A stretch of 64,000 bases of DNA from Kiritimatiellia bacterium (GCA_050949565.1 JBMNFY010000017.1:1664001-1728000), one strand, 5' to 3'. Positions 38,372 to 48,845 are shown, counted from the first letter of the stretch. The notes: generated by a model not told the origin, from the letters alone. Program-made: numbers and translations.

Positions 38372-39346
38372 TCAGGTTCCTTGGGTTCGGGCGGCGTGGG
38401 CCAGAATTTCATCCGGTGTGGCGGTGGCGGTGCCGAGTTTGCCGACCACCACGCCGGCGGCGAGATTGGCCAGTGTTGCGGCGCGCTCAATGTCCGCGCC
38501 GGTGGCCAGCGCGGCGGTCAGCGTAGCGATCACGGTATCGCCTGCGCCCGAAACGTCAAAGACCTCGCGCGCGGTCGTGGCGAGATGGCGGCCGGGACGG
38601 CCGCCGGTGCTGAGCAGCATGCCGTCGGCACCCAGAGTCACCACCAGATGCTCCGGCGCGAACCGCTCATGGAGGCGCGCGGTCACTTCGGCTTCCGGGA
38701 ACGCCCTGCTTTCTGTGCCCTGCATGCCAGCAAGCTGGAGGGCCTCGCTGCGGTTGGGCGTCATCAACGACACGCGCGCGAAATGCAGGTCCGGTCGCGG
38801 TTTGGGATCGATCGCCACGATCTGTCCGGGGCGCGCCATCTCTTGCACGCGACGGACCAACTCGCTGGTGACGACTCCTTTGGCGTAGTCCGAAAGAATC
38901 ACGGCATCTGCCGCCGCGATCCGGTCGCGCAACGTCTCGAATGCCGCCTCTGGCATGGCGTAGGCCTCCGGCCGCTCCTCGCGGTCGATGCGGCACAACT
39001 GCTGGTTGCGGCACATGACGCGGGTCTTGACGATCGTGGCGACATGCCCGCTACGGCAGGCCGCGTCGCAGCCTACGCCGCGTTCGGCTAGATTTGCCTG
39101 GAGCATCCGCCCGTTCGCATCGGTGCCGAAGACACCGGCGACCTCCACCGCGACACCCAACGCGCGCAGGTTGGCCGCCACGTTCGCGGCGCCGCCTGCC
39201 GTGTAGGCGTCATGACCGACCTTGACGATCGGCACCGGTGCTTCCGGCGAGAGGCGCACGGCATCGCCCCACACGTAGTGATCGAGCATCAGGTCGCCCA
39301 CCACCAACACATGCAGGCGGGGAATTGCATCTAAAAGCTGTTGCAT
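38372..39346 (-). CDS. hldA: D-glycero-D-manno-heptose-7-phosphate kinase (RfaE/HldE domain I, HldA)
   Basis: VVGDLMLDHY, RLSPEAPVP, LSDYAKG, TPNRSE, DVSGAGDTV. Confidence 0.92.
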   Translation of the reverse strand: MQQLLDAIPRLHVLVVGDLMLDHYVWGDAVRLSPEAPVPIVKVGHDAYTAGGAANVAANLRALGVAVEVAGVFGTDANGRMLQANLAERGVGCDAACRSGHVATIVKTRVMCRNQQLCRIDREERPEAYAMPEAAFETLRDRIAAADAVILSDYAKGVVTSELVRRVQEMARPGQIVAIDPKPRPDLHFARVSLMTPNRSEALQLAGMQGTESRAFPEAEVTARLHERFAPEHLVVTLGADGMLLSTGGRPGRHLATTAREVFDVSGAGDTVIATLTAALATGADIERAATLANLAAGVVVGKLGTATATPDEILAHAARTQGT

Positions 39347-39478
39347 ACGGATAGTGTCGAAAACCCCCGCGCCGGTGTCAAGTCGCAAGGTCAAACCACA
39401 AACCAAACCACAAACCACAAAACCGATTGCGTGTTCAGAACGATTGTCCTACAATCCCCCGCATTCACCGATTGGACT

Positions 39479-39555
39479 CGGGGCGTTGCACAGCCTGGTA
39501 GTGCGCCAGCTTTGGGAGCTGGATGTCGGGGGTTCGAATCCCTCCGCCCCGACCA
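39479..39555 (+). tRNA. tRNA-Pro(UGG)
   Basis: CGGGGCG/CGCCCCG acceptor stem, CCAGC-TTTGGGA-GCTGG anticodon arm, GTTCGAATC T-loop, encoded CCA. Confidence 0.96.
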
Positions 39556-40167
39556 TTTTTCAAGCCGTTTCCGGCTCTTATATGTCAAAAAACCCCAATA
39601 AAAACGGGGGTTTCAGCGTTTCCGGCTTGTCCGCTCCCTTTTTCTGCAACATTCTGAAACACGCTGATTTACAAGGGGCAATTACACAAACAAACACACA
39701 AACAAACACAAACGCCGGAAGTCAATAATATGCACGCCCGCTTGGGTTTTGACGTTGTAAGCCGGGAGCCATTCCCCCTATAACGCGGGACAGAAAAGCC
39801 CGAATAAAACCCAAAACGCCCAAATACGGGAGGTGTCGCCGTGACAAGGGACAAAAAACCGCCATCATTTGTTTAGGTCGGTCGGCTCGTGATGGATTAA
39901 AGAACGGGATCGAATCCCGGACAAGGGCCGCGCCAATCCGGCGTGACTCGCTTCCCGATACCGGCCCTGCATCCGTGCTTGCCGCCGGTGGGTTGCCAGT
40001 TCCAACAGTCCCGACACCGCCCCGCCCCGGTCGGCCCGGTCGGCCCGAGTTCGGCCTAGCACGCCGTTTCTGAACCGCAAAATCTCGCGCCTGTTGCGTC
40101 CGCGCCGATAGCCTAGGGGAATGTACCGCCCAAGCCCTAAAACGCGCCAGATGCGATTCTGACGCGA

Positions 40168-40491
40168 TTAGCGGCCAAGCCGCCGTTTTATGTCGGCGAC
40201 CAGGCCGGCCATCGCCAAACGGAGCCTGCCGCCCGGCCCCCAGGCCTCGGCCTCTTCGAGAAAAAATCTCGCAAGCTGCCGGTGCCCGGCCCGCCGTATC
40301 GCCTCGAGTGCCGTCCGTTCGCCGTCGTTAGCGGCCTCGGACATTAGCCCGGCAAGCCTTGCGTCAAAAGTCACGCGCCGCATAGAAGCGAACCGCCTCG
40401 CCGCCGCAATGCAACTTGCCGCCTCGGCTTCAGGGTCTAGGGCTTCGAGGTTTGCCAGTGTTGTTTGAAGGGTTTCGGTGTCGTTTTTCAT
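40168..40491 (-). CDS. Hypothetical helical protein of the integrated element
   Basis: 107-aa ORF with upstream AAAGGCG; last gene of the element's unidirectional array. Confidence 0.6.
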   Translation of the reverse strand: MKNDTETLQTTLANLEALDPEAEAASCIAAARRFASMRRVTFDARLAGLMSEAANDGERTALEAIRRAGHRQLARFFLEEAEAWGPGGRLRLAMAGLVADIKRRLGR

Positions 40492-40685
40492 GGTGTCGCC
40501 TTTGTGGTGGGGGGCGCGTTCGGTTACTCACTTTTTATGCGTTACTCCGCCCTCCGGGGTCTCGTCGTAAACAGTGTTGGAAAGGACCCACAGGGGGGGG
40601 TGGGTGCCTGAAAAAAGGCCCGGTGCGGTTTTTTAGGGGCCGGGCACGCTCCCTGAAAGGTGTCGGCAACCGCTGCCGCTGACGT

Positions 40686-40939
40686 TCAGTCCGCCAACGG
40701 GTCGGGCATCGAAAGGCCGTGCGCCTTCAACAATGCCGCCACGTCTGCTTTCGCGCAGGCAAACCGACCCGCTCCCAACCCGGGTCGCGGGTGATCATCA
40801 GCCTCGCCCGTTCGCGGTCTTTATGCGTTGGAAACCGCTTAAAACCGGCCAGTGCGCAGGCATATGCAAACACCAGCCTGTCCAGAAGGTCGGTCGTGCT
40901 TGGGTCAACGATGATCGGTTCCAGTTGATTCGTAGACAT
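40686..40939 (-). pseudogene. Small hypothetical protein (frameshifted near the C-terminus), paralog of the upstream ORF
   Basis: AGGAGG RBS, MSTNQLEP...; continuation KADVAALLKAHGLSMPDPLAD* in another frame. Confidence 0.55.
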
Positions 40940-40949
40940 GATTTCCTCC

Positions 40950-41207
40950 TTCTTAGGGTTTTTTTAACGCGGCGGACAACGGGCGGCGTGAAGCCGTGTT
41001 GCCGCAGCAGCGCCGCGCACTCGGATTCGGTCGGCGCGAAGAGTTTTGCGCACGCCGGATCGTTGACGATTTGCTGCCGCGCCGCAGCCACCTCGCCCGG
41101 CTTAGGATACCCGCCGCCGTGATGCGCGCGGTACTTCAGGAACGCGTGCGCAACGGCCAGCTTTTCGACAAGCGTGTCGCGCTCGCATTGTGTCTTGATG
41201 TGCCATG
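40950..41207 (-). pseudogene. Small hypothetical protein (frameshifted), paralog of the downstream ORF
   Basis: GAAGGA RBS + MAHQDT, then ERDTLVEKLAVAHAFLKY...CAALLRQHGF in a shifted frame; 3' end approximate. Confidence 0.5.
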
Positions 41208-41277
41208 TTTTCCTTCACTTTCTGCCGGGTCGCCCGGCGTTGTTCTCCAGCGCACCATGCGCTGGAAGCTGTTCAAA

Positions 41278-42099
41278 TCAAAATTCCCTGCAATGCTCGC
41301 AGCTTTTCGGTTCCGTCCGCACAAACTTTGAGCACCATCTTTTTTCGGAGTCCCAGTGGCGGCACCGACGGGCGCAATCCTGCCAGATAGGGCGTTCAGG
41401 CTTCACCGCTGCAGGTGCCGCCGACGGTATGGGTGCCACTCGCTCGCGTCTCGCCCAAGTTGCGATTCGCCGCGGCAACTCGAAAAACTTTTCACTTTGG
41501 AACCGGCAACGGCCTTTCGGGTCGCGCTCCAACCAATAATCGCAAAACGCCTCAAGTTGCGGCGCAGTCAGCCGATCAGCATTTGCTGCCTGTGCCCTTT
41601 CGGAAAAATTCTCTGGCGTGAGTTTGCCAGCGGCGTCTGCCGCTCTCTCTCTTGTTCCTTTGTTCTCTTCGTAAGAAGAGTTGTTATATGTCTCGGCACT
41701 CAGCGGCGGATTACAAGCCACAAGGGTTGTGTCTTTAGAGCCTAACCCTCGTGGCTTGTCGCCACAAGGGGGCGTACTCGCTTTCACGCGATAAAGGCTC
41801 GGCTCCCTGCCCATTTTGCCAAGGACGCGCCGCTCTTCAATTTCCAAAAGATTCATGCCCGCCAGCGAGTGCAGTGCCCTCAGCGTCGCTTTGTAACCTA
41901 GACCAGCCAGCCGTGCAACCATTCCGACCGGCGCAATCAAATCACACGTTTGATGCAAGTTGCATAGACTGATGACAGCCGCCCACACCGTGAAAAGTGT
42001 TGTGCCGTCGCGTTCACCGGACGATGTAAGGATCGTCTCCATGTCCCGCCGCCCAATCGGGAACCAGCCGCCCGCGCCTGCTGCCGCCGCGCCGTTCAT
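41278..42099 (-). CDS. Phage-type replication initiator / replisome organizer-like protein
   Basis: N-terminal winged-HTH-like segment (VARLAGLGYKATLRALHSL), low-complexity linker, FCDYW...RFQSEKFF...RRIATWARRE motif, Cys-rich tail. Confidence 0.6.
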   Translation of the reverse strand: MNGAAAAGAGGWFPIGRRDMETILTSSGERDGTTLFTVWAAVISLCNLHQTCDLIAPVGMVARLAGLGYKATLRALHSLAGMNLLEIEERRVLGKMGREPSLYRVKASTPPCGDKPRGLGSKDTTLVACNPPLSAETYNNSSYEENKGTRERAADAAGKLTPENFSERAQAANADRLTAPQLEAFCDYWLERDPKGRCRFQSEKFFELPRRIATWARRERVAPIPSAAPAAVKPERPIWQDCARRCRHWDSEKRWCSKFVRTEPKSCEHCREF

Positions 42100-42353
42100 T
42101 CAGCGCCCCCTTCCTTTGCGCCGCGTCCCATGACTTCGGCAATCAGCCGCTCGGCTTGCCGCAAACGCCATTTTTCAGCCGCCGCAGCGGCGCGGGCGCG
42201 TTCCCGCGTGCCGCACGCGTGGCAGATGTCCGGCGCATGATCGAACACGCGAAGGACACGCCCGCACGACCGGCATCTCGGAAGTTTCCGGCATGCCGCG
42301 TTCGACAAGTGTTGGCAATGGCAGACTTTCGCAGGGAGGGTAATTGTTCTCAT
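42096..42353 (-). CDS. Small Cys-rich (zinc-finger-like) protein
   Basis: ATGA-coupled to both neighbours; CHC, CRSC, CHAC motifs. Confidence 0.6.
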   Translation of the reverse strand: MRTITLPAKVCHCQHLSNAACRKLPRCRSCGRVLRVFDHAPDICHACGTRERARAAAAAEKWRLRQAERLIAEVMGRGAKEGGAE

Positions 42354-42635
42354 TGCGCCACCTCGCCTTTCACAAACGCCGTGATCGCTTCGGACGGGAT
42401 GCGCCGTGAGCCTTTCCGCAACTCGATAAACGGCAACCTGCCGTCGCGCAACAACCGCCAGATTGTCGTTCTTGAAACGCCCAGGGCGTCCGCCGCTTGC
42501 TGTATTGATAGACAGCCGCCTGTCGCCGGGGTCGGTCGCGCCCTCGGTCGGTTCGCCGGTTAACACGCGGTCAACGCGCCGCAGCGTGTCGGGGGTTGCC
42601 GCAAGCAGCAGGGTCATTCGTTGTTCTGTAGTCAT
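42350..42635 (-). pseudogene. Excisionase/AlpA-like HTH protein, one frameshift
   Basis: AAGGAG RBS; after a frame change near 42512 reads SIQQAADALGVSRTTIWRLLRDGRLPFIELRKGSRRIPSEAITAF (HTH_17 pattern). Confidence 0.75.
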
Positions 42636-42973
42636 GGGTGAGTCTCCTTTTATGGGTTGCTTCGTTTTTCCTCACCCTGCCACCAAAATGTCCCGTTTGT
42701 GTCCCGTTTCCCTACACGCTAAACGCGCCCGCGCCCGCGTTTTCATTGGCTTAAAAAAAGTTTCGGCATGTCCTTTTGTGTCCTGTTTCGGGACAAAAAA
42801 AAGACCGCCCCGCATGAAGCAGGACGGCCAAAAATACACCGTTGTGTTGCTCAGATAATCGCTTGATCGGTACCCGGTCGCGCCGCGCCGTGTCATCTCG
42901 GCTTGCCACATCGGCAATTCTGATAATCTTTTGCAGCGTGCACACGGGCCATGTCACGCGCCAATCGTCTCTT

Positions 42974-43524
42974 TCAAGGCCCCCTTTTATGCTTGCGGCT
43001 GCCTTGCGCCGCGCCGCCCAATGCCCCTAATGCTACAGCGTCACCGCGCCCCGGATAATCTTCCGGTGTAGCTTCTCCTTTTTCCCATCGGCGGATTGTC
43101 TTTTCTGTCACGTTGCAAAGTTGCGCCGCTTCGAGTTGCGTCACGGCTTGCCGTTGCTTGGTTTTCGGCTTGTTGGCCGGGGCCGCGTCCGCCTGTTGCA
43201 TCCGCTCGGCAATCGTTCGCAGGTCGGCGCGTTCACGCTCCCGGTCTGCGGCCTCTTTCACCGCAGCCGGATTCGAGCCGACCAGCAGCCACTTCTGTGA
43301 GCGATTTTGTGCGCGTCGTTAAACGTCCGAGGATGTCCGCCCGTCCCGGCTCACAGGCATTTTGTCATAGTGCCGGGTAATCATGCAGCACCGATCTAAT
43401 GCCGTCCGGTGTCGGCTGGTTGTCGGCCAGCCATCGCAAGGCGTTGTCAACGACCGCTTGGTAATGCGGCCCTCTTTGGGAGCGTTTGGTTGTAAGGCGG
43501 TGCAGGTTCGAAGTACTAGCTCAT
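42974..43524 (-). pseudogene. HTH DNA-binding protein, multiply frameshifted
   Basis: ATG overlapping integrase stop; C-terminal VTQLEAAQLCNVTEKTIRRWEKG HTH; boundaries approximate. Confidence 0.55.
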
Positions 43525-45162
43525 TGTTCGCCCTCCTTCATAAGTTCCGCCAGCCGCGCCCGGTCAGCCGGCGACAAGGCTTTCAGTTGCTCGGCAAGGT
43601 CGGCGACCGTGCCGCCCGCGCCGATCTGTTTTGGGGGCGCACCGTTGCCGGTCAGCACTGCGGGGAGTGCCGCTTCAAGCTCGGCCCTTGAATCCGTGCC
43701 CCTCGGTTTGTAGTAGTGCCGCATGACGGTTTCAACAAGGCTGTGCCCGGTCAGTGCCTTTAGCTTTTCAACGCTGATACCCGCGTTCAGTGCCAGCGTG
43801 ACAAAGGTTGTTCTCAGCGCGTGGAAGTCATACCGGCTTGCCGCTTTCAGACCGACCGCCCGCCGTGTCCGGGTCACGTCCCGAATTGCCGCATTCACGC
43901 CGGGGGCTTGCGCGTCGGGAAGGAAGCGCACTCCGGCCAGCCGTTCGGCTTCGTGCATCAGCATGGAGATTCCGCCCCGCGATATGCGCCGCGTCTTTTG
44001 GATGTCCCGGTAGGATTCTCCGCCCGCGTACCGGGTCAGAAGGTCAATCATCTTAGCCCGCTTGGTTTCGGTCATTTTCGCGCTCTGTACGGCTTGCAGC
44101 ACTTGGGGGAGTATGCGGGCAAGGGGGACACGCTCCGGCGCGTCCTGTGCGGCCTGTGGCGCGTCCTGTGGCTTGGCAAACGCCAGCGCGAAAGCTTTTT
44201 TAATCCGGCGTGACACGCCGCTCGGGTTCGTCCGCAGTTCCCGCTCGGCTTCCGGGAACACAAAGACCGCGTCTTCGGCCCGTTCGGCAAGCCGTGCTTC
44301 CAGCACTTCCCGCAGACGGGGCAAAATCGGCAAGTAAAGCTCGGCTTTCGTTTTGGACGTGACCAGCCGCAACACGCCGCCCCGCAGGTCAACGCTTTCC
44401 CACCGCAACCGGCACACGTCCCCGCGCCGCAGTCCCGTTGAAAGCCCGGCAACGATCAAATCAAACGCCGTGCGGTCGCCCGCCGCCGCTTCGCAAGCAG
44501 GGTTTCGACTCTCGGCGGGGTTCAACGGTCTCGCGGTTGTATACCCGGTCGCCCTCGGTAGCGTCCACCGCAACGCCCGAAAACGGGTTTTCTACGCCGT
44601 GGGGCAACGCCCGCTTTAGAGCCTGACCGATTGCCGCCTTGTGTTTGCGGATGGTTGCCGCCGTCATTGTGCGCCCCGCCTCGTTCGGCACGTAAAGGCT
44701 TTCGATATACTCCCGCGCAATATCCGGCGTGATTTCAAGCACCGTGACCAGCCCGCGCCGGGAAACCCAATCCGCAAAGGCTTCAACCGTGCGCCGCTTC
44801 CAAGTCTCGTGTTGCTGTGACCGAGCCCGGCGCGTGTTGCCCGCCGTCATGCCGGGAAGGTCGGCAAGCGGGGTTTCCTTCCATTCGCGCCCAGTTTTGA
44901 TCGAGACAAGCTTGGCGGTAAGGTCTGCCGCCCGCCCCTTTGTCCGCGCTTCCCTCTGGAAGGTTTCGAGTTCCTTTTCCGCCCGCGCCCGGCTTGCCTC
45001 AAAAATGGCGTTGCCGGTTTCCCGCAGACTGCCGGGGTAGTGCTTGACCGGTAGCCGCTCGGTCAACGCGACAACCCGCCGCTTGCCGTTGCTGTCTACA
45101 AAAGAACCGTACCAGTTCCCGATCAACTGACCGTCCCGCCCGCGTCTGATTTCAAGTGCCAT
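43521..45162 (-). pseudogene. Tyrosine recombinase/integrase, frameshifted near 44490-44530
   Basis: MALEIRRGRDG..WYG start at 45162; TGLRRGD (R), TSKTK (K), FHALRTT (HxxR), LTGHS, RHYY; split across two ORFs. Confidence 0.85.
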
Positions 45163-45314
45163 AGCTGCGTTCCTTCCGGTTGTTTGAAACAATGGAACAC
45201 AGTTTGAACCAAGCGGCATCGAATGGCAAGCAGAAAACACAAACAAACACAAAAACACGGTTTTAACCGTCAAGAAAATGCCGCTTTTATTGGGGTTTTT
45301 GCGGTTTGGCTTTA

Positions 45315-45367
45315 AGCTTTGGGAGCTGGATGTCGGGGGTTCAAATCCCTCCGCCCCGACCATTTTT
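45315..45367 (+). repeat. attR: duplicated 3' half of tRNA-Pro
   Basis: AGCTTTGGGAGCTGGATGTCGGGGGTTCAAATCCCTCCGCCCCGACCATTTTT. Confidence 0.93.
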
Positions 45368-45392
45368 TTTGCTCGTACGGTGAGGGAGCGGA

Positions 45393-48300
45393 ATGGATCC
45401 GGTTGAACGGTATTTGAGCGACATAGGGGAGATTCGCGCCACAGGCGCGGGTACTGTCGAAACGTCCTACTACCCCGCGCTTTCCACGCTCTTGAATGAG
45501 ATCGGCAAACGGCCAACCCCCAAAGTCCGTTGCGTGATCCAGCTCCAGAACAAGGGCGCGGGTATGCCCGACGGCGGCATGTTCACCGCCGACCAGTTCA
45601 GAAGCAAGGCCGCCAAACAGAACGCCGGGGCTAACCCGCTCGAAACCCTTCCGCCCTCCCGTGGCGTGATCGAAGTCAAATCCCCCGCCGAGGATCTGGC
45701 GGACATCATCGCAAGCGAACAAATTGCCCGCTATTGGGATTATTACGGCCTCGTGCTGGTCACGAATTACCGCGCCTTCACGCTGATCGGACGCACGGCC
45801 ACCGGCCACGCCGTAGAGTTGGAACGCTTCACGCTGGCTGCGACCGAAGCGGAGTTCTGGAAACTGGCCGCGCATCCGCGCACCTGCCCCGACGGACTGC
45901 GCGAACGTTTCGCCGAATATCTATACCGCGCCATGACGCACAACGCGCCGTTGGCCAAGCCCCACGATGTGGCCGCTATCCTCGCTTCCTACGCCCGCGA
46001 CGCCAAGGCGCGCATCGAACACGCTGACCTGCCTGCGCTGGCCGGACTGCGCGAAGCCCTGGAACTCGCCCTCGGCCTGAAATTCGAAGGCGAGAAGGGC
46101 GAGCATTTCTTCCGTTCTACGCTGATTCAGACCCTCTTTTACGGCATCTTTTCCGCATGGGTGCTGTGGGCACGCAAGCGCGCGTCAACCCCCGCCGCGT
46201 CCACCAAGGAAAAGACGCTCAAGTATGAGCTGAAAGAGTCGGCGACAGCCTACCGCACGGACGCCAAGCATTTTGACTGGCGCACCGCCGTGTGGCACTT
46301 GCGCGTGCCGATGATCCGCGCTCTGTTCGTGCAGATCGCCACCCCCGAACGGCTCGGCTCCTTGGGGTTGGCGGAAGTTCTCGACTGGACCGCGTCCGCC
46401 CTGAACCGCGTGGACGGCGATGCGTTCTTTGCGGCCTTCGATGAGGGCCACGCCGTCCAGTATTTCTACGAGCCGTTCTTGCAGAAGTTCGACCCCGAGT
46501 TGCGCAAAGACCTTGGCGTGTGGTACACGCCGACCGAGATCGTTGAGTATCAGGTTGAGCGCGTGGATACCGTTCTGCGCGAAGAGCTGCACATTGCCGA
46601 CGGACTGGCCGACCCGCGCGTGATCGTCCTCGATCCCTGCTGCGGCACCGGTGCGTATGTGCGCGCGGTGCTAACCCGCATCGCCAAGACGCTGAACGAC
46701 AAAGGCGGCGACAGCCTGACCGCGCAAGACCTGAAAACCGCCGCGCTTGAACGCGTCTTGGGCTTCGAGATTCTGCCTGCGCCCTTCGTCATTGCCCACT
46801 TGCAAATCGGCCTTTTGCTAGAAACACTCGGCGCGCCGCTCAACGAATCCAAAGACGAGCGCGTCGGCGTCTACCTGACCAACGCCCTGACCGGCTGGAA
46901 ACCGCCGAAAGAGCCCAAGACGCTCTTGCTCTTTCCCGAAATGGCGGAGGAGCGCGACGCCGCCGACCGCATCAAGCGGCGCGACAGCATTCTCGTTATC
47001 CTCGGCAACCCGCCTTATGATGGCTTTGCGGGGGTCGCCGTAACCGCCGAAGAACGCGCCCTCTCGGACGCCTACCGTGCGACACGCCTCGCGCCACCGC
47101 CGCAGGGACAAGGACTCAACGACCTCTATGTCCGCTTCTTCCGCATGGCCGAACGGCGCATCGTGGAAATGAACCAGCCGCAAAAAGGCATCATCTGTTT
47201 CATCTCCAATTACTCGTGGCTCGATGGGCTGTCTTTCACAGGCATGCGCGAACGCTATCTTGAGGTTTTTGAGCGTATCGCCATCGACAACCTGAATGGC
47301 GACAAGTACAAGACCGGCAAGCTCACGCCCGAGGGCGATCCCGATCCCAGCGCCTTCTCCACCGAGTACAACCGGGAAGGCATCCAAGTCGGCACGGCCG
47401 TCACGCTGCTGGTCAAAAACGGTGTTCCCCTGGCAGGGGCGGCACCCCGGTCTATCCGCTTTCGCCATTTCTGGGGCAAAAACAAACGCGCTGACTTGCT
47501 TGCTGATAACGTCCCGTATCAAGAACTCATCCCGGTCGCTGAAATCGGATATCCCTTCTTGCCCGGACTCATCGCCTCCGGCTATACCACATGGTCCGCG
47601 CTGCCCGCGCTCTTCCCGACGTCCTTCCCCGGCGTGAAGACGAGCCGCGACGACTTCCTTGTGGATATTGACCGGGATCGCCTGTTGGCCCGTCTCCAAA
47701 CTTATTTCGATCCAGACGTATCCCACGCAGAAATGCGCCAGCTCAACCCCGGCGTGATGGAAGACACGCCGCGTTTCAAAGGCGAGGCTGTGCGCGACAC
47801 CTTGCGCAAACGTGGCTTCCTGCCCGACAACATTGTCCGCTACTGTTACCGCCCCTTCGATACGCGCTGGCTCTACTGGGAGCCGGAAACAAAGCTGCTC
47901 GACGAGAAACGCAGCGATTATTTTCCGCATGTCTTCGAGGGAAATATCGCTCTCGTGTCACAACAAAAGCCTCGTCGCGAATGGCAACCGTCACAAGTAA
48001 TTTGCAGGATAGGTTGTCTGGACCTCATGGATCGTTCGGCATCCTTCTTCCCGCTCTATCTGCACTCCGACGGCTCATCCCTGCTTGAGCCTGTAGGCAA
48101 GCGACCGAACCTGAGCGATACGGCAGCCGCCTATATTGCCGATTTGGATGTCGGTCCCGAAGACCTTTTCTATCACGCGCTGGCCATCATGCACGCCCCC
48201 GCCTACCGTACTGAGAACGCGGGTGCGTTGCGGCAGGACTGGCCGCGCATTCCGTTGCCCGCGACGCAAAAGGCGTTGTTGGCTTCGGCGGCGTTGGGGC

Positions 48301-48845
48301 GGCGGGTGGCGGCATTGCTGGACACGGAAACGCCCGTCCCGGGCGTGACCGCCGGGAGTATCCGCGAGGAGCTGAAAGCTGTCGCGGTCTTCACGCGCAC
48401 AGACGGCAAGCAGGCCCGTTCAGATGCAGGCGATTTAGATGTGACGGCGGGCTGGGGTTACGCCGGCAAAGGCGGCGTGACCATGCCGGGGCGGGGGAAG
48501 ATTGAAACGTCGAACGCAGAACGCAGAACGCCCAACGCAGAAGGGCACTTCAATGTTCAGAGTTCGACGTTGGACGTTCAACGTTCTTTCGATGTGTACC
48601 TCAACGACCTGACCTGTTGGCGCAACGTGCCTGTGTCCGTATGGGAATACACGATAGGCGGGTATCAGGTCATCAAAAAATGGCTTTCCTATCGCGAAAA
48701 GCCCTTGCTGGGGCGCGGCCTGACCGTGGCCGAGGTGCGGTATGTCACCGAGACCGCCCGCCGCATCGCGGCGTTGATTGCGATGCAGGCGGAGTTGGAT
48801 GAGAATTACCGTATTGTGGCCGCAGACACTTATACAATCTTTTAG
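45393..48845 (+). CDS. Single-chain restriction-modification enzyme (type IIG / type ISP-like, no helicase): nuclease + N6-adenine MTase + specificity domain
   Basis: PD...IEVK N-terminal nuclease motif, GVWYTP, LDPCCGTG (motif I), GNPPY (motif IV), YRPFD and WEYTIGGYQVIKKWL as in LlaBIII-type C-termini. Confidence 0.88.
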   Translation: MDPVERYLSDIGEIRATGAGTVETSYYPALSTLLNEIGKRPTPKVRCVIQLQNKGAGMPDGGMFTADQFRSKAAKQNAGANPLETLPPSRGVIEVKSPAEDLADIIASEQIARYWDYYGLVLVTNYRAFTLIGRTATGHAVELERFTLAATEAEFWKLAAHPRTCPDGLRERFAEYLYRAMTHNAPLAKPHDVAAILASYARDAKARIEHADLPALAGLREALELALGLKFEGEKGEHFFRSTLIQTLFYGIFSAWVLWARKRASTPAASTKEKTLKYELKESATAYRTDAKHFDWRTAVWHLRVPMIRALFVQIATPERLGSLGLAEVLDWTASALNRVDGDAFFAAFDEGHAVQYFYEPFLQKFDPELRKDLGVWYTPTEIVEYQVERVDTVLREELHIADGLADPRVIVLDPCCGTGAYVRAVLTRIAKTLNDKGGDSLTAQDLKTAALERVLGFEILPAPFVIAHLQIGLLLETLGAPLNESKDERVGVYLTNALTGWKPPKEPKTLLLFPEMAEERDAADRIKRRDSILVILGNPPYDGFAGVAVTAEERALSDAYRATRLAPPPQGQGLNDLYVRFFRMAERRIVEMNQPQKGIICFISNYSWLDGLSFTGMRERYLEVFERIAIDNLNGDKYKTGKLTPEGDPDPSAFSTEYNREGIQVGTAVTLLVKNGVPLAGAAPRSIRFRHFWGKNKRADLLADNVPYQELIPVAEIGYPFLPGLIASGYTTWSALPALFPTSFPGVKTSRDDFLVDIDRDRLLARLQTYFDPDVSHAEMRQLNPGVMEDTPRFKGEAVRDTLRKRGFLPDNIVRYCYRPFDTRWLYWEPETKLLDEKRSDYFPHVFEGNIALVSQQKPRREWQPSQVICRIGCLDLMDRSASFFPLYLHSDGSSLLEPVGKRPNLSDTAAAYIADLDVGPEDLFYHALAIMHAPAYRTENAGALRQDWPRIPLPATQKALLASAALGRRVAALLDTETPVPGVTAGSIREELKAVAVFTRTDGKQARSDAGDLDVTAGWGYAGKGGVTMPGRGKIETSNAERRTPNAEGHFNVQSSTLDVQRSFDVYLNDLTCWRNVPVSVWEYTIGGYQVIKKWLSYREKPLLGRGLTVAEVRYVTETARRIAALIAMQAELDENYRIVAADTYTIF

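Follow-up and report, generated by a model that had tools for sequence, protein, structure and literature searches.

A decaying copy of a small tRNA-integrating replicative element, tentatively of the phage-satellite kind, in a Kiritimatiellia genome

We analyzed a stretch of 64,000 nt from a Kiritimatiellia bacterium (GCA_050949565.1 JBMNFY010000017.1:1664001-1728000; hereafter the window), in which an island at 39508-45367 occupies a tRNA-Pro gene. The island is very likely an integrative mobile element, and the copy in the window is a pseudogenised, decaying member of a family whose intact members carry eight genes. Among these are a tyrosine integrase and a replication protein (Rep), which is probably related in kind to the O protein of phage lambda and appears to have its origin inside its own gene. 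The element belongs to a known kind, the small tRNA-integrating replicative island, and is probably helper-dependent; that it is more precisely a phage satellite is a real possibility, which we put at somewhat short of an even chance. The term 'minimal satellite', used in an earlier note on this DNA, describes the family, best seen in an intact sibling on another contig of the same genome, and not a working element in the window.

The island is bounded by a 53-nt direct repeat with one mismatch, which extends from the anticodon stem to five bases beyond the 3' end of tRNA-Pro and has a start-to-start distance of 5807 nt. A 28-nt core pattern of the attachment (att) site, with up to 3 mismatches allowed, occurred at two places in the window against 0.00 expected from 100 shuffles; the same search of the window revealed neither a third att copy nor a composite island including the downstream restriction gene. 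A genome of the same genus (G203; flanks 96-99% identical) has an empty site, in which the tRNA is followed directly by the right flank of the window. Window positions 39425-39560 and 45315-47036 map to overlapping places in G203, and their common part is exactly 53 nt. The T-loop has an A at the native site of G203 (GGTTCAAATCC) and also in the attR of the window, whereas the tRNA at attL has a G. This pattern indicates that the element supplies a new tRNA 3' part and that the crossover lay 5' of position 39535. Together, the empty site and the T-loop difference show that the mobile unit has exactly the limits drawn in the earlier note, with 5807 bp between att cores at tRNA-Pro.

Just inside the att cores lies a 27-nt inverted repeat (arms 39588-39614 and 45274-45300; 85% complementary), whose arms are accompanied by CA-rich runs, the tRNA-proximal one at approximately 39684-39712. 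These arms and runs have the symmetry expected for attP arm sites. The promoter-like block of the int-proximal arm consists of TTGCCA and CAAACT separated by 17 nt.

The intact sibling, on contig C21 of the same genome (G000), is located at tRNA-Asn(gtt) and shows 74-88% nucleotide identity to the window copy. Its eight genes are closely spaced and none of them is broken; they encode an integrase (int; 539 aa), a 207-aa protein, an AlpA-type protein (alpA; 96 aa), a Cys-rich product of an open reading frame (ORF) with Zn-finger-like character (znf; 78 aa), Rep (269 aa), two paralogous proteins (A and B; 83 and 80 aa), and an orphan protein (107 aa). Three of the junctions, namely int with the gene behind it, alpA with znf, and znf with rep, are ATGA overlaps; the first of these was found in 5/5 elements checked.

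A contig scan yielded 58 metagenome loci of the family, in which gene order was determined by tblastn with the eight proteins of the sibling. Many of them have the order int, 207-aa gene, alpA, znf, rep, paralog A, paralog B, and orphan. One locus (L033) holds a complete element of ~5.5 kb between 46-nt tRNA-Val(gac) repeats within a 36.9-kb contig, and others end at tRNA-Pro(tgg) (L031), tRNA-Pro(ggg) (L072), and tRNA-Asn (L010, a contig of a Victivallaceae metagenome-assembled genome, or MAG). The recurrence of one gene order at four tRNA species indicates a mobile family and not a prophage remnant. The earlier note had asked whether the relatives are full prophages or carriers of a relaxase or an origin of transfer (oriT). 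None of these relatives lies within a larger prophage or carries a relaxase, and none of the 58 loci showed structural genes, so that the answer is negative. The proposal of a discrete capsid-less element at tRNA-Pro that belongs to an undescribed family is supported, and the relatives keep both gene order and size.

The family appears to be sparsely represented in genome collections. Homologs of Rep numbered 137 at E<=1e-3 in a collection clustered at 90%, a protein of a Kiritimatiellia MAG among them, and 233 at the same threshold in a 50%-representative library, where only 17 reached E<=1e-10. Among species-representative genomes, the family was found on three MAG contigs only. In an order-level search, 3/200 genomes matched besides G000 itself, all of them weakly (E 1e-5 to 8e-5).

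Every recognisable gene of the window island lies on the minus strand, in the order int, helix-turn-helix (HTH) ORF, AlpA-type gene, Zn-finger ORF, Rep-like gene, paralog A, paralog B, and orphan (Table 1). Scans of the island ORFs with Pfam and PHROGs returned the integrase, weak HTH signals, one PHROG of unknown function on the Rep-like ORF, and nothing else. The integrase matched PF00589 with 70.1 bits (cut-off 27.1) on 43521-44573 and phrog_1 at 1.2e-24, the sibling integrase scoring 50.6 bits, and the 95-aa HTH ORF matched HTH_3 at 1.1e-4, below the Pfam cut-off. Families of capsid, terminase, tail, relaxase, and type IV secretion system (T4SS) proteins were found by Pfam and PHROGs on none of the island ORFs, either in the window or in the intact sibling. 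The ORF, Pfam, and PHROGs scans thus agree with the one-strand order from int to orphan and with the lack of capsid, terminase, tail, relaxase, and T4SS genes read in the earlier note.

Comparison with the proteins of the intact sibling shows that int, the gene overlapping it, alpA, paralog A, and paralog B are all disrupted in the window. These five frame-broken genes show that the window copy is decaying, and they bear out the earlier remark that frameshifts hide most of the genes in the ORF track. Each of the five was aligned by tblastn in two frames, paralog A in its start region; paralog A has lost both its in-frame start and its stop. ATGA overlaps still tie the Zn-finger ORF to alpA upstream and to rep downstream.

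Table 1. Features of the island and its target site (positions counted from the first letter of the window)
Feature	Position	Strand	Basis
tRNA-Pro(tgg), integration target	39479-39555	+	ARAGORN; Rfam tRNA, 63 bits
attL core, 53 nt, equal to the tRNA-Pro 3' part from 39508; T-loop G at 39535	39508-39560	+	Direct repeat
tRNA-proximal arm, non-coding: 27-nt inverted-repeat arm, CA-rich run, conserved block	39561-40167	-	Repeat search; sequence inspection; alignment A3
Orphan ORF, 107 aa, intact, with its own upstream promoter-like block	40168-40491	-	85% amino acid identity to sibling; no Pfam or PHROG match
Paralog B (80 aa in sibling), frameshift at ~40751-40754	40689-40939	-	Two-frame tblastn; paralogy by alignment A2
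Paralog A (83 aa in sibling); ATG at 41206 out of frame with the body; stop lost, frame extends to 40801	40957-41208	-	tblastn; frame check
Rep, 273 aa, intact: winged-helix N-terminus (type B), linker, conserved C-terminal domain with Cys cluster	41278-42099	-	ORF list; alignment; fold
Putative origin inside rep	41640-41770	.	Inverted repeat, GCCACAAGGG pair, adjoining lower-GC stretch
Zn-finger-like ORF, 85 aa, Cys-rich, intact	42096-42353	-	No Pfam family
AlpA/excisionase-type HTH gene, frame broken at ~42513-42529	42350-42635	-	Two-frame tblastn; sibling protein HTH_17 PF12728, 8.5e-12
Remnant of int-overlapping gene (207 aa in sibling); stop and frameshift; surviving 95-aa ORF 42974-43261 with HTH	42974-43520	-	Two-frame tblastn
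Tyrosine integrase, frame-split between 44492 and 44575	43521-45162	-	PF00589, 2.5e-19; two-frame tblastn
int-proximal arm: conserved promoter-like block, CA-rich run, second inverted-repeat arm	45163-45314	-	Repeat search; sequence inspection
attR core, 53 nt: native tRNA-Pro 3' part, left by integration	45315-45367	+	Direct repeat; identical to G203 attB including flank; tRNA-like Rfam match

Alleles of the window copy were present in digester communities. Twenty public runs from 16 studies, all of them bioreactor or digester metagenomes, contain 46-65% of the words sampled from the stretch, and Logan contigs (not raw reads) of four runs were aligned to the window. Contigs of the flanks showed 0 differences over ~1 kb, and several island pieces were also exact. 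Two alleles were found at the int break, one like that of the window and the other lacking 2, 1, and 1 letters at 44490, 44509, and 44529, respectively; the latter made up 274/428 of the depth in run X2, 15/30 in X3, and the full depth of 28 in X1. Removal of these four letters in silico gave an uninterrupted int frame of 545 aa, and in digester contigs with two additional letters at 41241/41246 the frame of paralog A is, by arithmetic, restored. As seen in the contigs only, the broken int allele thus exists in nature beside a more intact one. None of the Logan contigs spans the whole island, and those of the flanks end at the att core, so that attB and attP junctions are not visible in them.

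An alignment of 29 Rep homologs showed that the last 110-120 residues, which contain a Cys cluster, are near-invariant and that the first ~100 residues fall into at least four unrelated-looking types. In an AlphaFold model of Rep, with a predicted local distance difference test score (pLDDT) of 66, the N-terminus forms a winged helix. Comparison of this model with the PDB gave generic winged-helix matches only (Foldseek best E 0.01; VIA best Z 8.9, residues 24-104), the C-terminal domain being barely covered, and the matched solved structures included initiators and DnaD/DnaB-type proteins among many regulators. The sibling Rep matched PHROGs of replication initiation (phrog_270, 3e-5; phrog_1032, 1.9e-4), and its matches to O-like PHROGs (phrog_391, 3.3e-3; phrog_8540, 0.033; phrog_345, 0.058) were weaker than the generic ones. 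Twelve of 40 distant Rep homologs had a Pfam family, namely HTH_36 (six), DUF6291 (four), DnaD_N (two, both also HTH_36), Lin1244_N (one), and HTH_11 (one); the other 28 had none.

The linker-coding part of rep contained short direct or inverted repeats in 6/6 genes examined, with spacings of 11, 21-22, 35, or 44 nt. In the window rep, these comprise a 16-nt inverted repeat (41713-41728 and 41744-41759) and two copies of GCCACAAGGG with 44-nt spacing (41717 and 41761), adjoined by a stretch of lower GC content; in the sibling rep, a 21-nt repeat occurs twice at a distance of 22 nt, together with a 15-nt inverted repeat free of mismatches, and a patch of 27% G+C follows. We compared motif and type in 45 rep genes, six of which fit no type. 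At least two copies of GTCAAAACTCC were present in 6/7 genes of type A, of CCCTTGTGGC in 5/6 of type B (the type of the window), of ATTTTGCC in 7/12 of type C, and of GTCC[CG]GGAC in 12/14 of type D, and no gene of types A to D contained the motif of a different type twice. These type-dependent repeats at the same position of rep look like cognate iterons. The suggestion of the earlier note that the element uses a replisome-organizer-type Rep and not a primase is in line with the initiation matches in PHROGs, the Pfam families of the homologs, and the intragenic repeats; the primase families DUF3987 (PF13148) and DUF5906 (PF19263) were matched by no ORF of the window or sibling island at E<=0.1.

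The C-terminal domain of Rep connects the islands with a group of phages. Contigs encoding a type D Rep also carry phage early genes, including those for RecT/Bet (phrog_252, 8e-50), a Dam methylase (phrog_111, 5e-44), phrog_874 (1e-72), a ParB-like protein, an HNH endonuclease, and a resolvase, and the C-terminal 120 residues of their Rep are 70-78% identical to those of the island Rep. On these phage-type contigs, rep is followed by a very conserved gene of 116-137 aa (88% mean column identity), which also stands behind an island-type Rep in three contigs, indicating that the modules recombine. We also considered whether paralogs A and B correspond to this phage post-Rep protein and rejected it (hhalign probability 0.1%).

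The host genome has CRISPR (clustered regularly interspaced short palindromic repeat) arrays at G000:C8:398306-403650 and G000:C10:1-4764, with 81 and 75 repeats, respectively. Two spacers matched at 32/32 positions with an AAG motif beside the protospacer, and one of them targets the C-terminal region of rep, both in phage-type contigs and in island L020, the other the ParB-like gene of locus L058. Further spacers matched phage-like contigs at 30/32 and 31/32 positions. A spacer of the other array matched the rep C-terminal region at 32/32 positions in three phage-type contigs and at 29/32 in the window rep (41332-41363). These matches indicate that the host lineage meets phages of the type D Rep group, with which the islands share a domain.

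Some members of the family lack int. These units of 2.1-3.5 kb (L032, L030, L023, L039, L044, L025, L021, and L068) contain alpA and rep, some of them with znf between the two and some with the paralogs and an alternative orphan gene as well, and they are joined head to tail via two conserved non-coding blocks. Locus L032 has three units that are ~93% alike with a period of ~2060 nt, and the periods in L023 and L021 are 2885 and 3517 nt, respectively. The 2449-nt contig L068 has a terminal overlap of 105 nt, as would be seen for a circle of 2344 bp. In L021, a junction of attP type is formed by an orphan end, a tRNA-Pro core, and an int end, behind which int is reduced to 94 codons; other int-less units start with the stump of a second integrase type. 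We read the int-less arrays as elements that accrete and decay in tandem at tRNA genes, the alternatives being small circles or assembler walks through variants.

Two non-coding segments of the island were compared across the family. The spacer between paralog B and the orphan (40492-40688), where the earlier note had placed a cos-like site, showed nothing on visual inspection beyond a hairpin resembling a terminator and a short, conserved block resembling a promoter, and a consensus scan of the spacer reported neither of them; the cos-like site accordingly found no support. Behind the orphan, a conserved block (40053-40167) comprises the operon-terminator hairpin and ~60 nt kept across the family. 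This block was found at 19 places in the loci (the window and 18 others), with 73-98% identity as against 55-85% for the elements otherwise. Its alignment (A3) has a mean column identity of 80%, with at least two alternative versions of the central part. RNAalifold predicted 12 pairs in the block, of which 0 showed a compensatory change, and the Rfam search of the window element returned, besides the tRNA and its fragment at attR, only a miRNA match attributable to chance. The block may serve as an origin, a regulatory site, or a transfer site, all of which are conceivable.

Several observations concern individual genes and the surroundings of the islands. The integrase is long (539-545 aa; L009 7882-9501 for the sibling, 43521-45162 for the window), with ~120 residues inserted inside the catalytic domain that weakly match HTH_38 (2.8e-4) and HTH_58 (9e-4). 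A 193-nt stretch on the contig of the window (G000:C17:1417837-1418029) is 72% identical to the island int and may be another integrase of the same clade. In many units, the orphan is replaced by a gene of 125-143 aa (L023 1170-1550, L039 883-1305, L031 3512-3889, and L068 729-1148). The 207-aa int-overlapping gene is replaced by a 280-aa gene in L031 (384-1226) and L020 (956-1801), the C-terminal part being common in L020; the alternative genes at both positions have no Pfam family.

The att repeat of the sibling is only 25 nt long and corresponds to the tRNA-Asn anticodon stem-loop (G000:C21 40049-40073 and 45648-45672; L009 4049-4073 and 9648-9672). Its distal copy is followed by a terminator-like hairpin in place of the expected original tRNA 3' half, this tRNA-Asn being the only one in the genome; the odd end is possibly the result of a later rearrangement. 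Directly outside attR, both the window and the C21 element are flanked by restriction or defence genes: a 1150-aa Type ISP enzyme in the window (45393-48845, plus strand; Type_ISP_C, 7.4e-52), and MTaX1-HNH, N6_N4 methylase, and Mrr-type endonuclease genes on C21 (L009 9869-13476, equal to G000:C21 45869-49476). No further att copy was found beyond these genes, and their status as cargo is thus unsupported. On the other side of the island, the G203 locus (L082, G203:C45) lacks the pfkB-family kinase gene found left of the window tRNA (38372-39418) and has in its place a gene for a repeat-rich, secreted-looking protein of 1000 aa (L082 2432-5648, in window orientation); this second difference at the locus is unrelated to the island.

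From these data, the following cycle can be proposed. The tyrosine integrase would insert the 5.5-5.8-kb island into the part of tRNA genes that extends from the anticodon stem to the 3' end. In working members such as the C21 sibling, a leftward operon transcribed from the conserved promoter would express Int, the int-overlapping gene, the AlpA-type excisionase or regulator, the Zn-finger protein, Rep, and the two paralogs, and would be followed by the separately promoted orphan. Int and AlpA, perhaps with the product of the int-overlapping gene, are predicted to excise the island. The lambda-O-like Rep would then bind the type-specific iterons in its own gene beside the AT-rich patch, the putative origin, and its near-invariant C-terminal domain would recruit the helicase-loading machinery, allowing the circle to replicate. 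Exit, the step that above all others we infer, would most likely take place inside the capsids of a helper phage in a satellite-like life style, and the candidate helpers are the phages that have the same Rep C-terminal domain and are targeted by the CRISPR arrays of the host.

Four properties counted for a phage satellite: the strictly small size, the absence of transfer genes, the phage-type replication module, and a host common with the phage group. Several results weigh against it. They contain no sign of helper-phage induction, packaging, or virion DNA, and none of the genes was recognised as terS, as a capsid-remodelling gene, or as a hijacking gene of another kind. Matches to phrog_57 (terS) were at the HTH level only (1.5e-3 for the HTH ORF and 5.8e-3 for AlpA), among those to many HTH families; 5/8 island proteins have no family in Pfam or PHROGs, including four small ones. 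Rep had no match in IMG/VR and 50,697 phage records or in 72,556 plasmid records, the model of paralog B (pLDDT 74) reached a best E of 0.64 against BFVD, and the int-overlapping protein of L010 had a best score of 0.85 in the ESM Atlas, below the useful range. In the host assembly, which is 92% complete, Phage_capsid, TerL_ATPase, Terminase_6N, and Phage_portal had no match, so that no resident helper was seen, absence not being proven given the incompleteness. The DNA common to the island and the phage-like fragments of 49.6 kb is limited to the C-terminal part of rep, and no common pac or cos sequence was found between them. The depth of island-specific contigs was not above that of the flanks, contig depths being a weak measure and not copy numbers, and the link between Rep type and motif is possibly inherited linkage, the sequences being kin and the counts not an independent statistic. 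The int-less units of 2.1-3.5 kb, one with its 105-nt terminal overlap, fit a plasmid-like life equally well.

Such a life, in which an integrative replicon has no helper of its own, is maintained in the chromosome or as a small circle, and spreads only by chance through generalised transduction, vesicles, or transformation, is in our estimate rather unlikely. A self-contained Rep with iterons, the small int-less units together with the circle implied by L068, and the lack of any recognised packaging or hijacking gene along with absence from virus collections would all be expected of it. Against it, the tandem units are ~7% different from one another and may represent arrays formed by accretion, or walks of the assembler, in place of circles; genes for partition, mobilisation, or copy control are missing, and the 72,556 plasmid records contained no match. 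The phage-type module, with an origin inside the initiator gene and a C-terminal domain common to phage-like contigs, and the strictly small size and PICMI-like order (see below) kept at four tRNA species also argue against a plasmid-like replicon. We consider it very unlikely that a conjugative element in the same cell instead supplies the relaxase that nicks the excised circle at an oriT in cis, followed by transfer of the circle through conjugation, as in hitchers of the iOriT type. Relaxase-less islands are reported to be common in the account given in bioRxiv 10.64898/2026.01.13.699239, and the strongly conserved non-coding blocks of the family could be taken for such sites; yet the conserved block consists of a terminator and a ~60-nt element without similarity to anything compared, relaxase and T4SS genes are absent from the island, neither Relaxase (PF03432) nor VirB4 (PF03135) had a match in the 92%-complete host assembly, and both the replication module and gene sharing point to phages. 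Decay of the window copy and a phage-like Rep module would also be seen in a deletion remnant of a larger prophage, of which int, xis, and early replication genes are left. This we regard as extremely unlikely: the same set of 5.5-5.8 kb stands between att repeats at independent tRNA-Pro, tRNA-Asn, and tRNA-Val sites, the empty site shows that exactly this unit, and no more, was inserted, and the 58 metagenome loci include no relative with structural genes.

A more specific form of the phage-satellite reading, which we consider improbable, is that of a new satellite family of the Planctomycetes-Verrucomicrobia-Chlamydiae (PVC) group with helper dependence through replication. The phage would supply the partner of Rep, the island would ride in its capsids, and the int-less units would be second-order parasites moved by the full-length integrase. 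The C-terminus of the island Rep is near-identical to that of the phage group and the island lacks the post-rep gene, a possible P-like loader; the origin could therefore fire only when the phage supplies the partner.

The diversity of small helper-dependent islands is thought to go far beyond the few described families. With its compact and conserved eight-gene set, a clear candidate origin in rep, and a three-way link among host CRISPR arrays, a phage group, and islands, the present family would open the satellite hypothesis to direct tests in the communities of anaerobic digesters. The element suggests that a lambda-type replication module and a tRNA integrase can be combined into a mobile unit of 5.5 kb; the window itself is a modest result, holding a decaying passenger. 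In open-access literature and bioRxiv, we found no description of satellites or islands in Lentisphaerota or Kiritimatiellia.

The iterons of the phage lambda origin are located within gene O, whose product owes its iteron specificity to the N-terminal domain and binds P through the C-terminal domain. The island Rep resembles this arrangement in its swappable N-terminal DNA-binding domain, in the type-specific repeats and AT-rich patch of the linker-coding part, and in its conserved C-terminal domain. Its differences from lambda O are a similarity in sequence that is no more than marginal (E 3e-3 to 6e-2), a Cys cluster at the C-terminus, and the lack of a P/DnaC-like gene on the island. The satellite plasmids pSSVi and pSSVx of Sulfolobus, replicons of ~5.7 kb with an integrase that targets a tRNA gene, are packaged by a helper virus; they are archaeal with unrelated proteins, and the parallel is an analogy only.

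Tycheposons, compared here by description only (bioRxiv 10.1101/2020.12.28.424599), are tyrosine-recombinase elements at tRNA genes including tRNA-Pro(tgg), where they leave partial tRNA repeats. According to that account, they likewise have replication genes and show accretion and decay beside tRNA genes, and some are like phage-inducible chromosomal islands (PICIs); unlike the present family, they have primase/helicase modules, often cargo, terS, or a major capsid protein gene, and sizes of 10-20 kb. As modelled in SatelliteFinder (PMC10085698), PICIs and the related Staphylococcus aureus pathogenicity islands share with our elements an integrase, an AlpA-type regulator, an own replication module, and the lack of tail and lysis genes. 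No terS or capsid-morphogenesis gene was recognised in our elements, which are about half the size or less. The authors of SatelliteFinder call the PICI 'Type C', with three core genes, ambiguous (PMC10085698), and the family belongs at best in that class.

The closest likeness in layout is to the minimalist chromosomal islands of Vibrionaceae that are inducible by phages (PICMIs), described as consisting of int, a gene that overlaps it by ATGA and is required for excision, alpA, an early gene of small size, a primase gene, and another small gene, and as being packaged as concatemers by a virulent helper (PMC10803314). The present elements are similar in their size of ~6 kb, in the one-directional series of int, ATGA-overlapping gene, alpA, small gene, replication gene, and small unknown genes, and, as far as that description goes, in the absence of capsid-remodelling and structural genes (PMC10803314). 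PICMI loci with several copies of alpA, which were ascribed to multiple integration, loss, and recombination (PMC10803314), resemble the tandem mini units. Of the features that define the PICMI model, the integrase and AlpA are present (PF12728 in the sibling; frameshifted in the window copy), and the primase and fis-adjacent site are lacking. The PICI/PICMI likeness seen in the earlier note thus holds for the layout, down to the ATGA-overlapping gene, and does not extend to membership among PICMIs. In contrast to the DUF3987/DUF5906 primase and fis-adjacent site described for PICMIs (PMC10803314), the present family has a lambda-O-like initiator with apparent intragenic iterons and integrates at tRNA genes; it has no sequence relationship to PICMIs, and its host is a PVC-group anaerobe. 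What appears to be new is therefore the predicted combination of a lambda-O-type Rep and its putative intragenic origin with a PICMI-like frame in PVC-group anaerobes.

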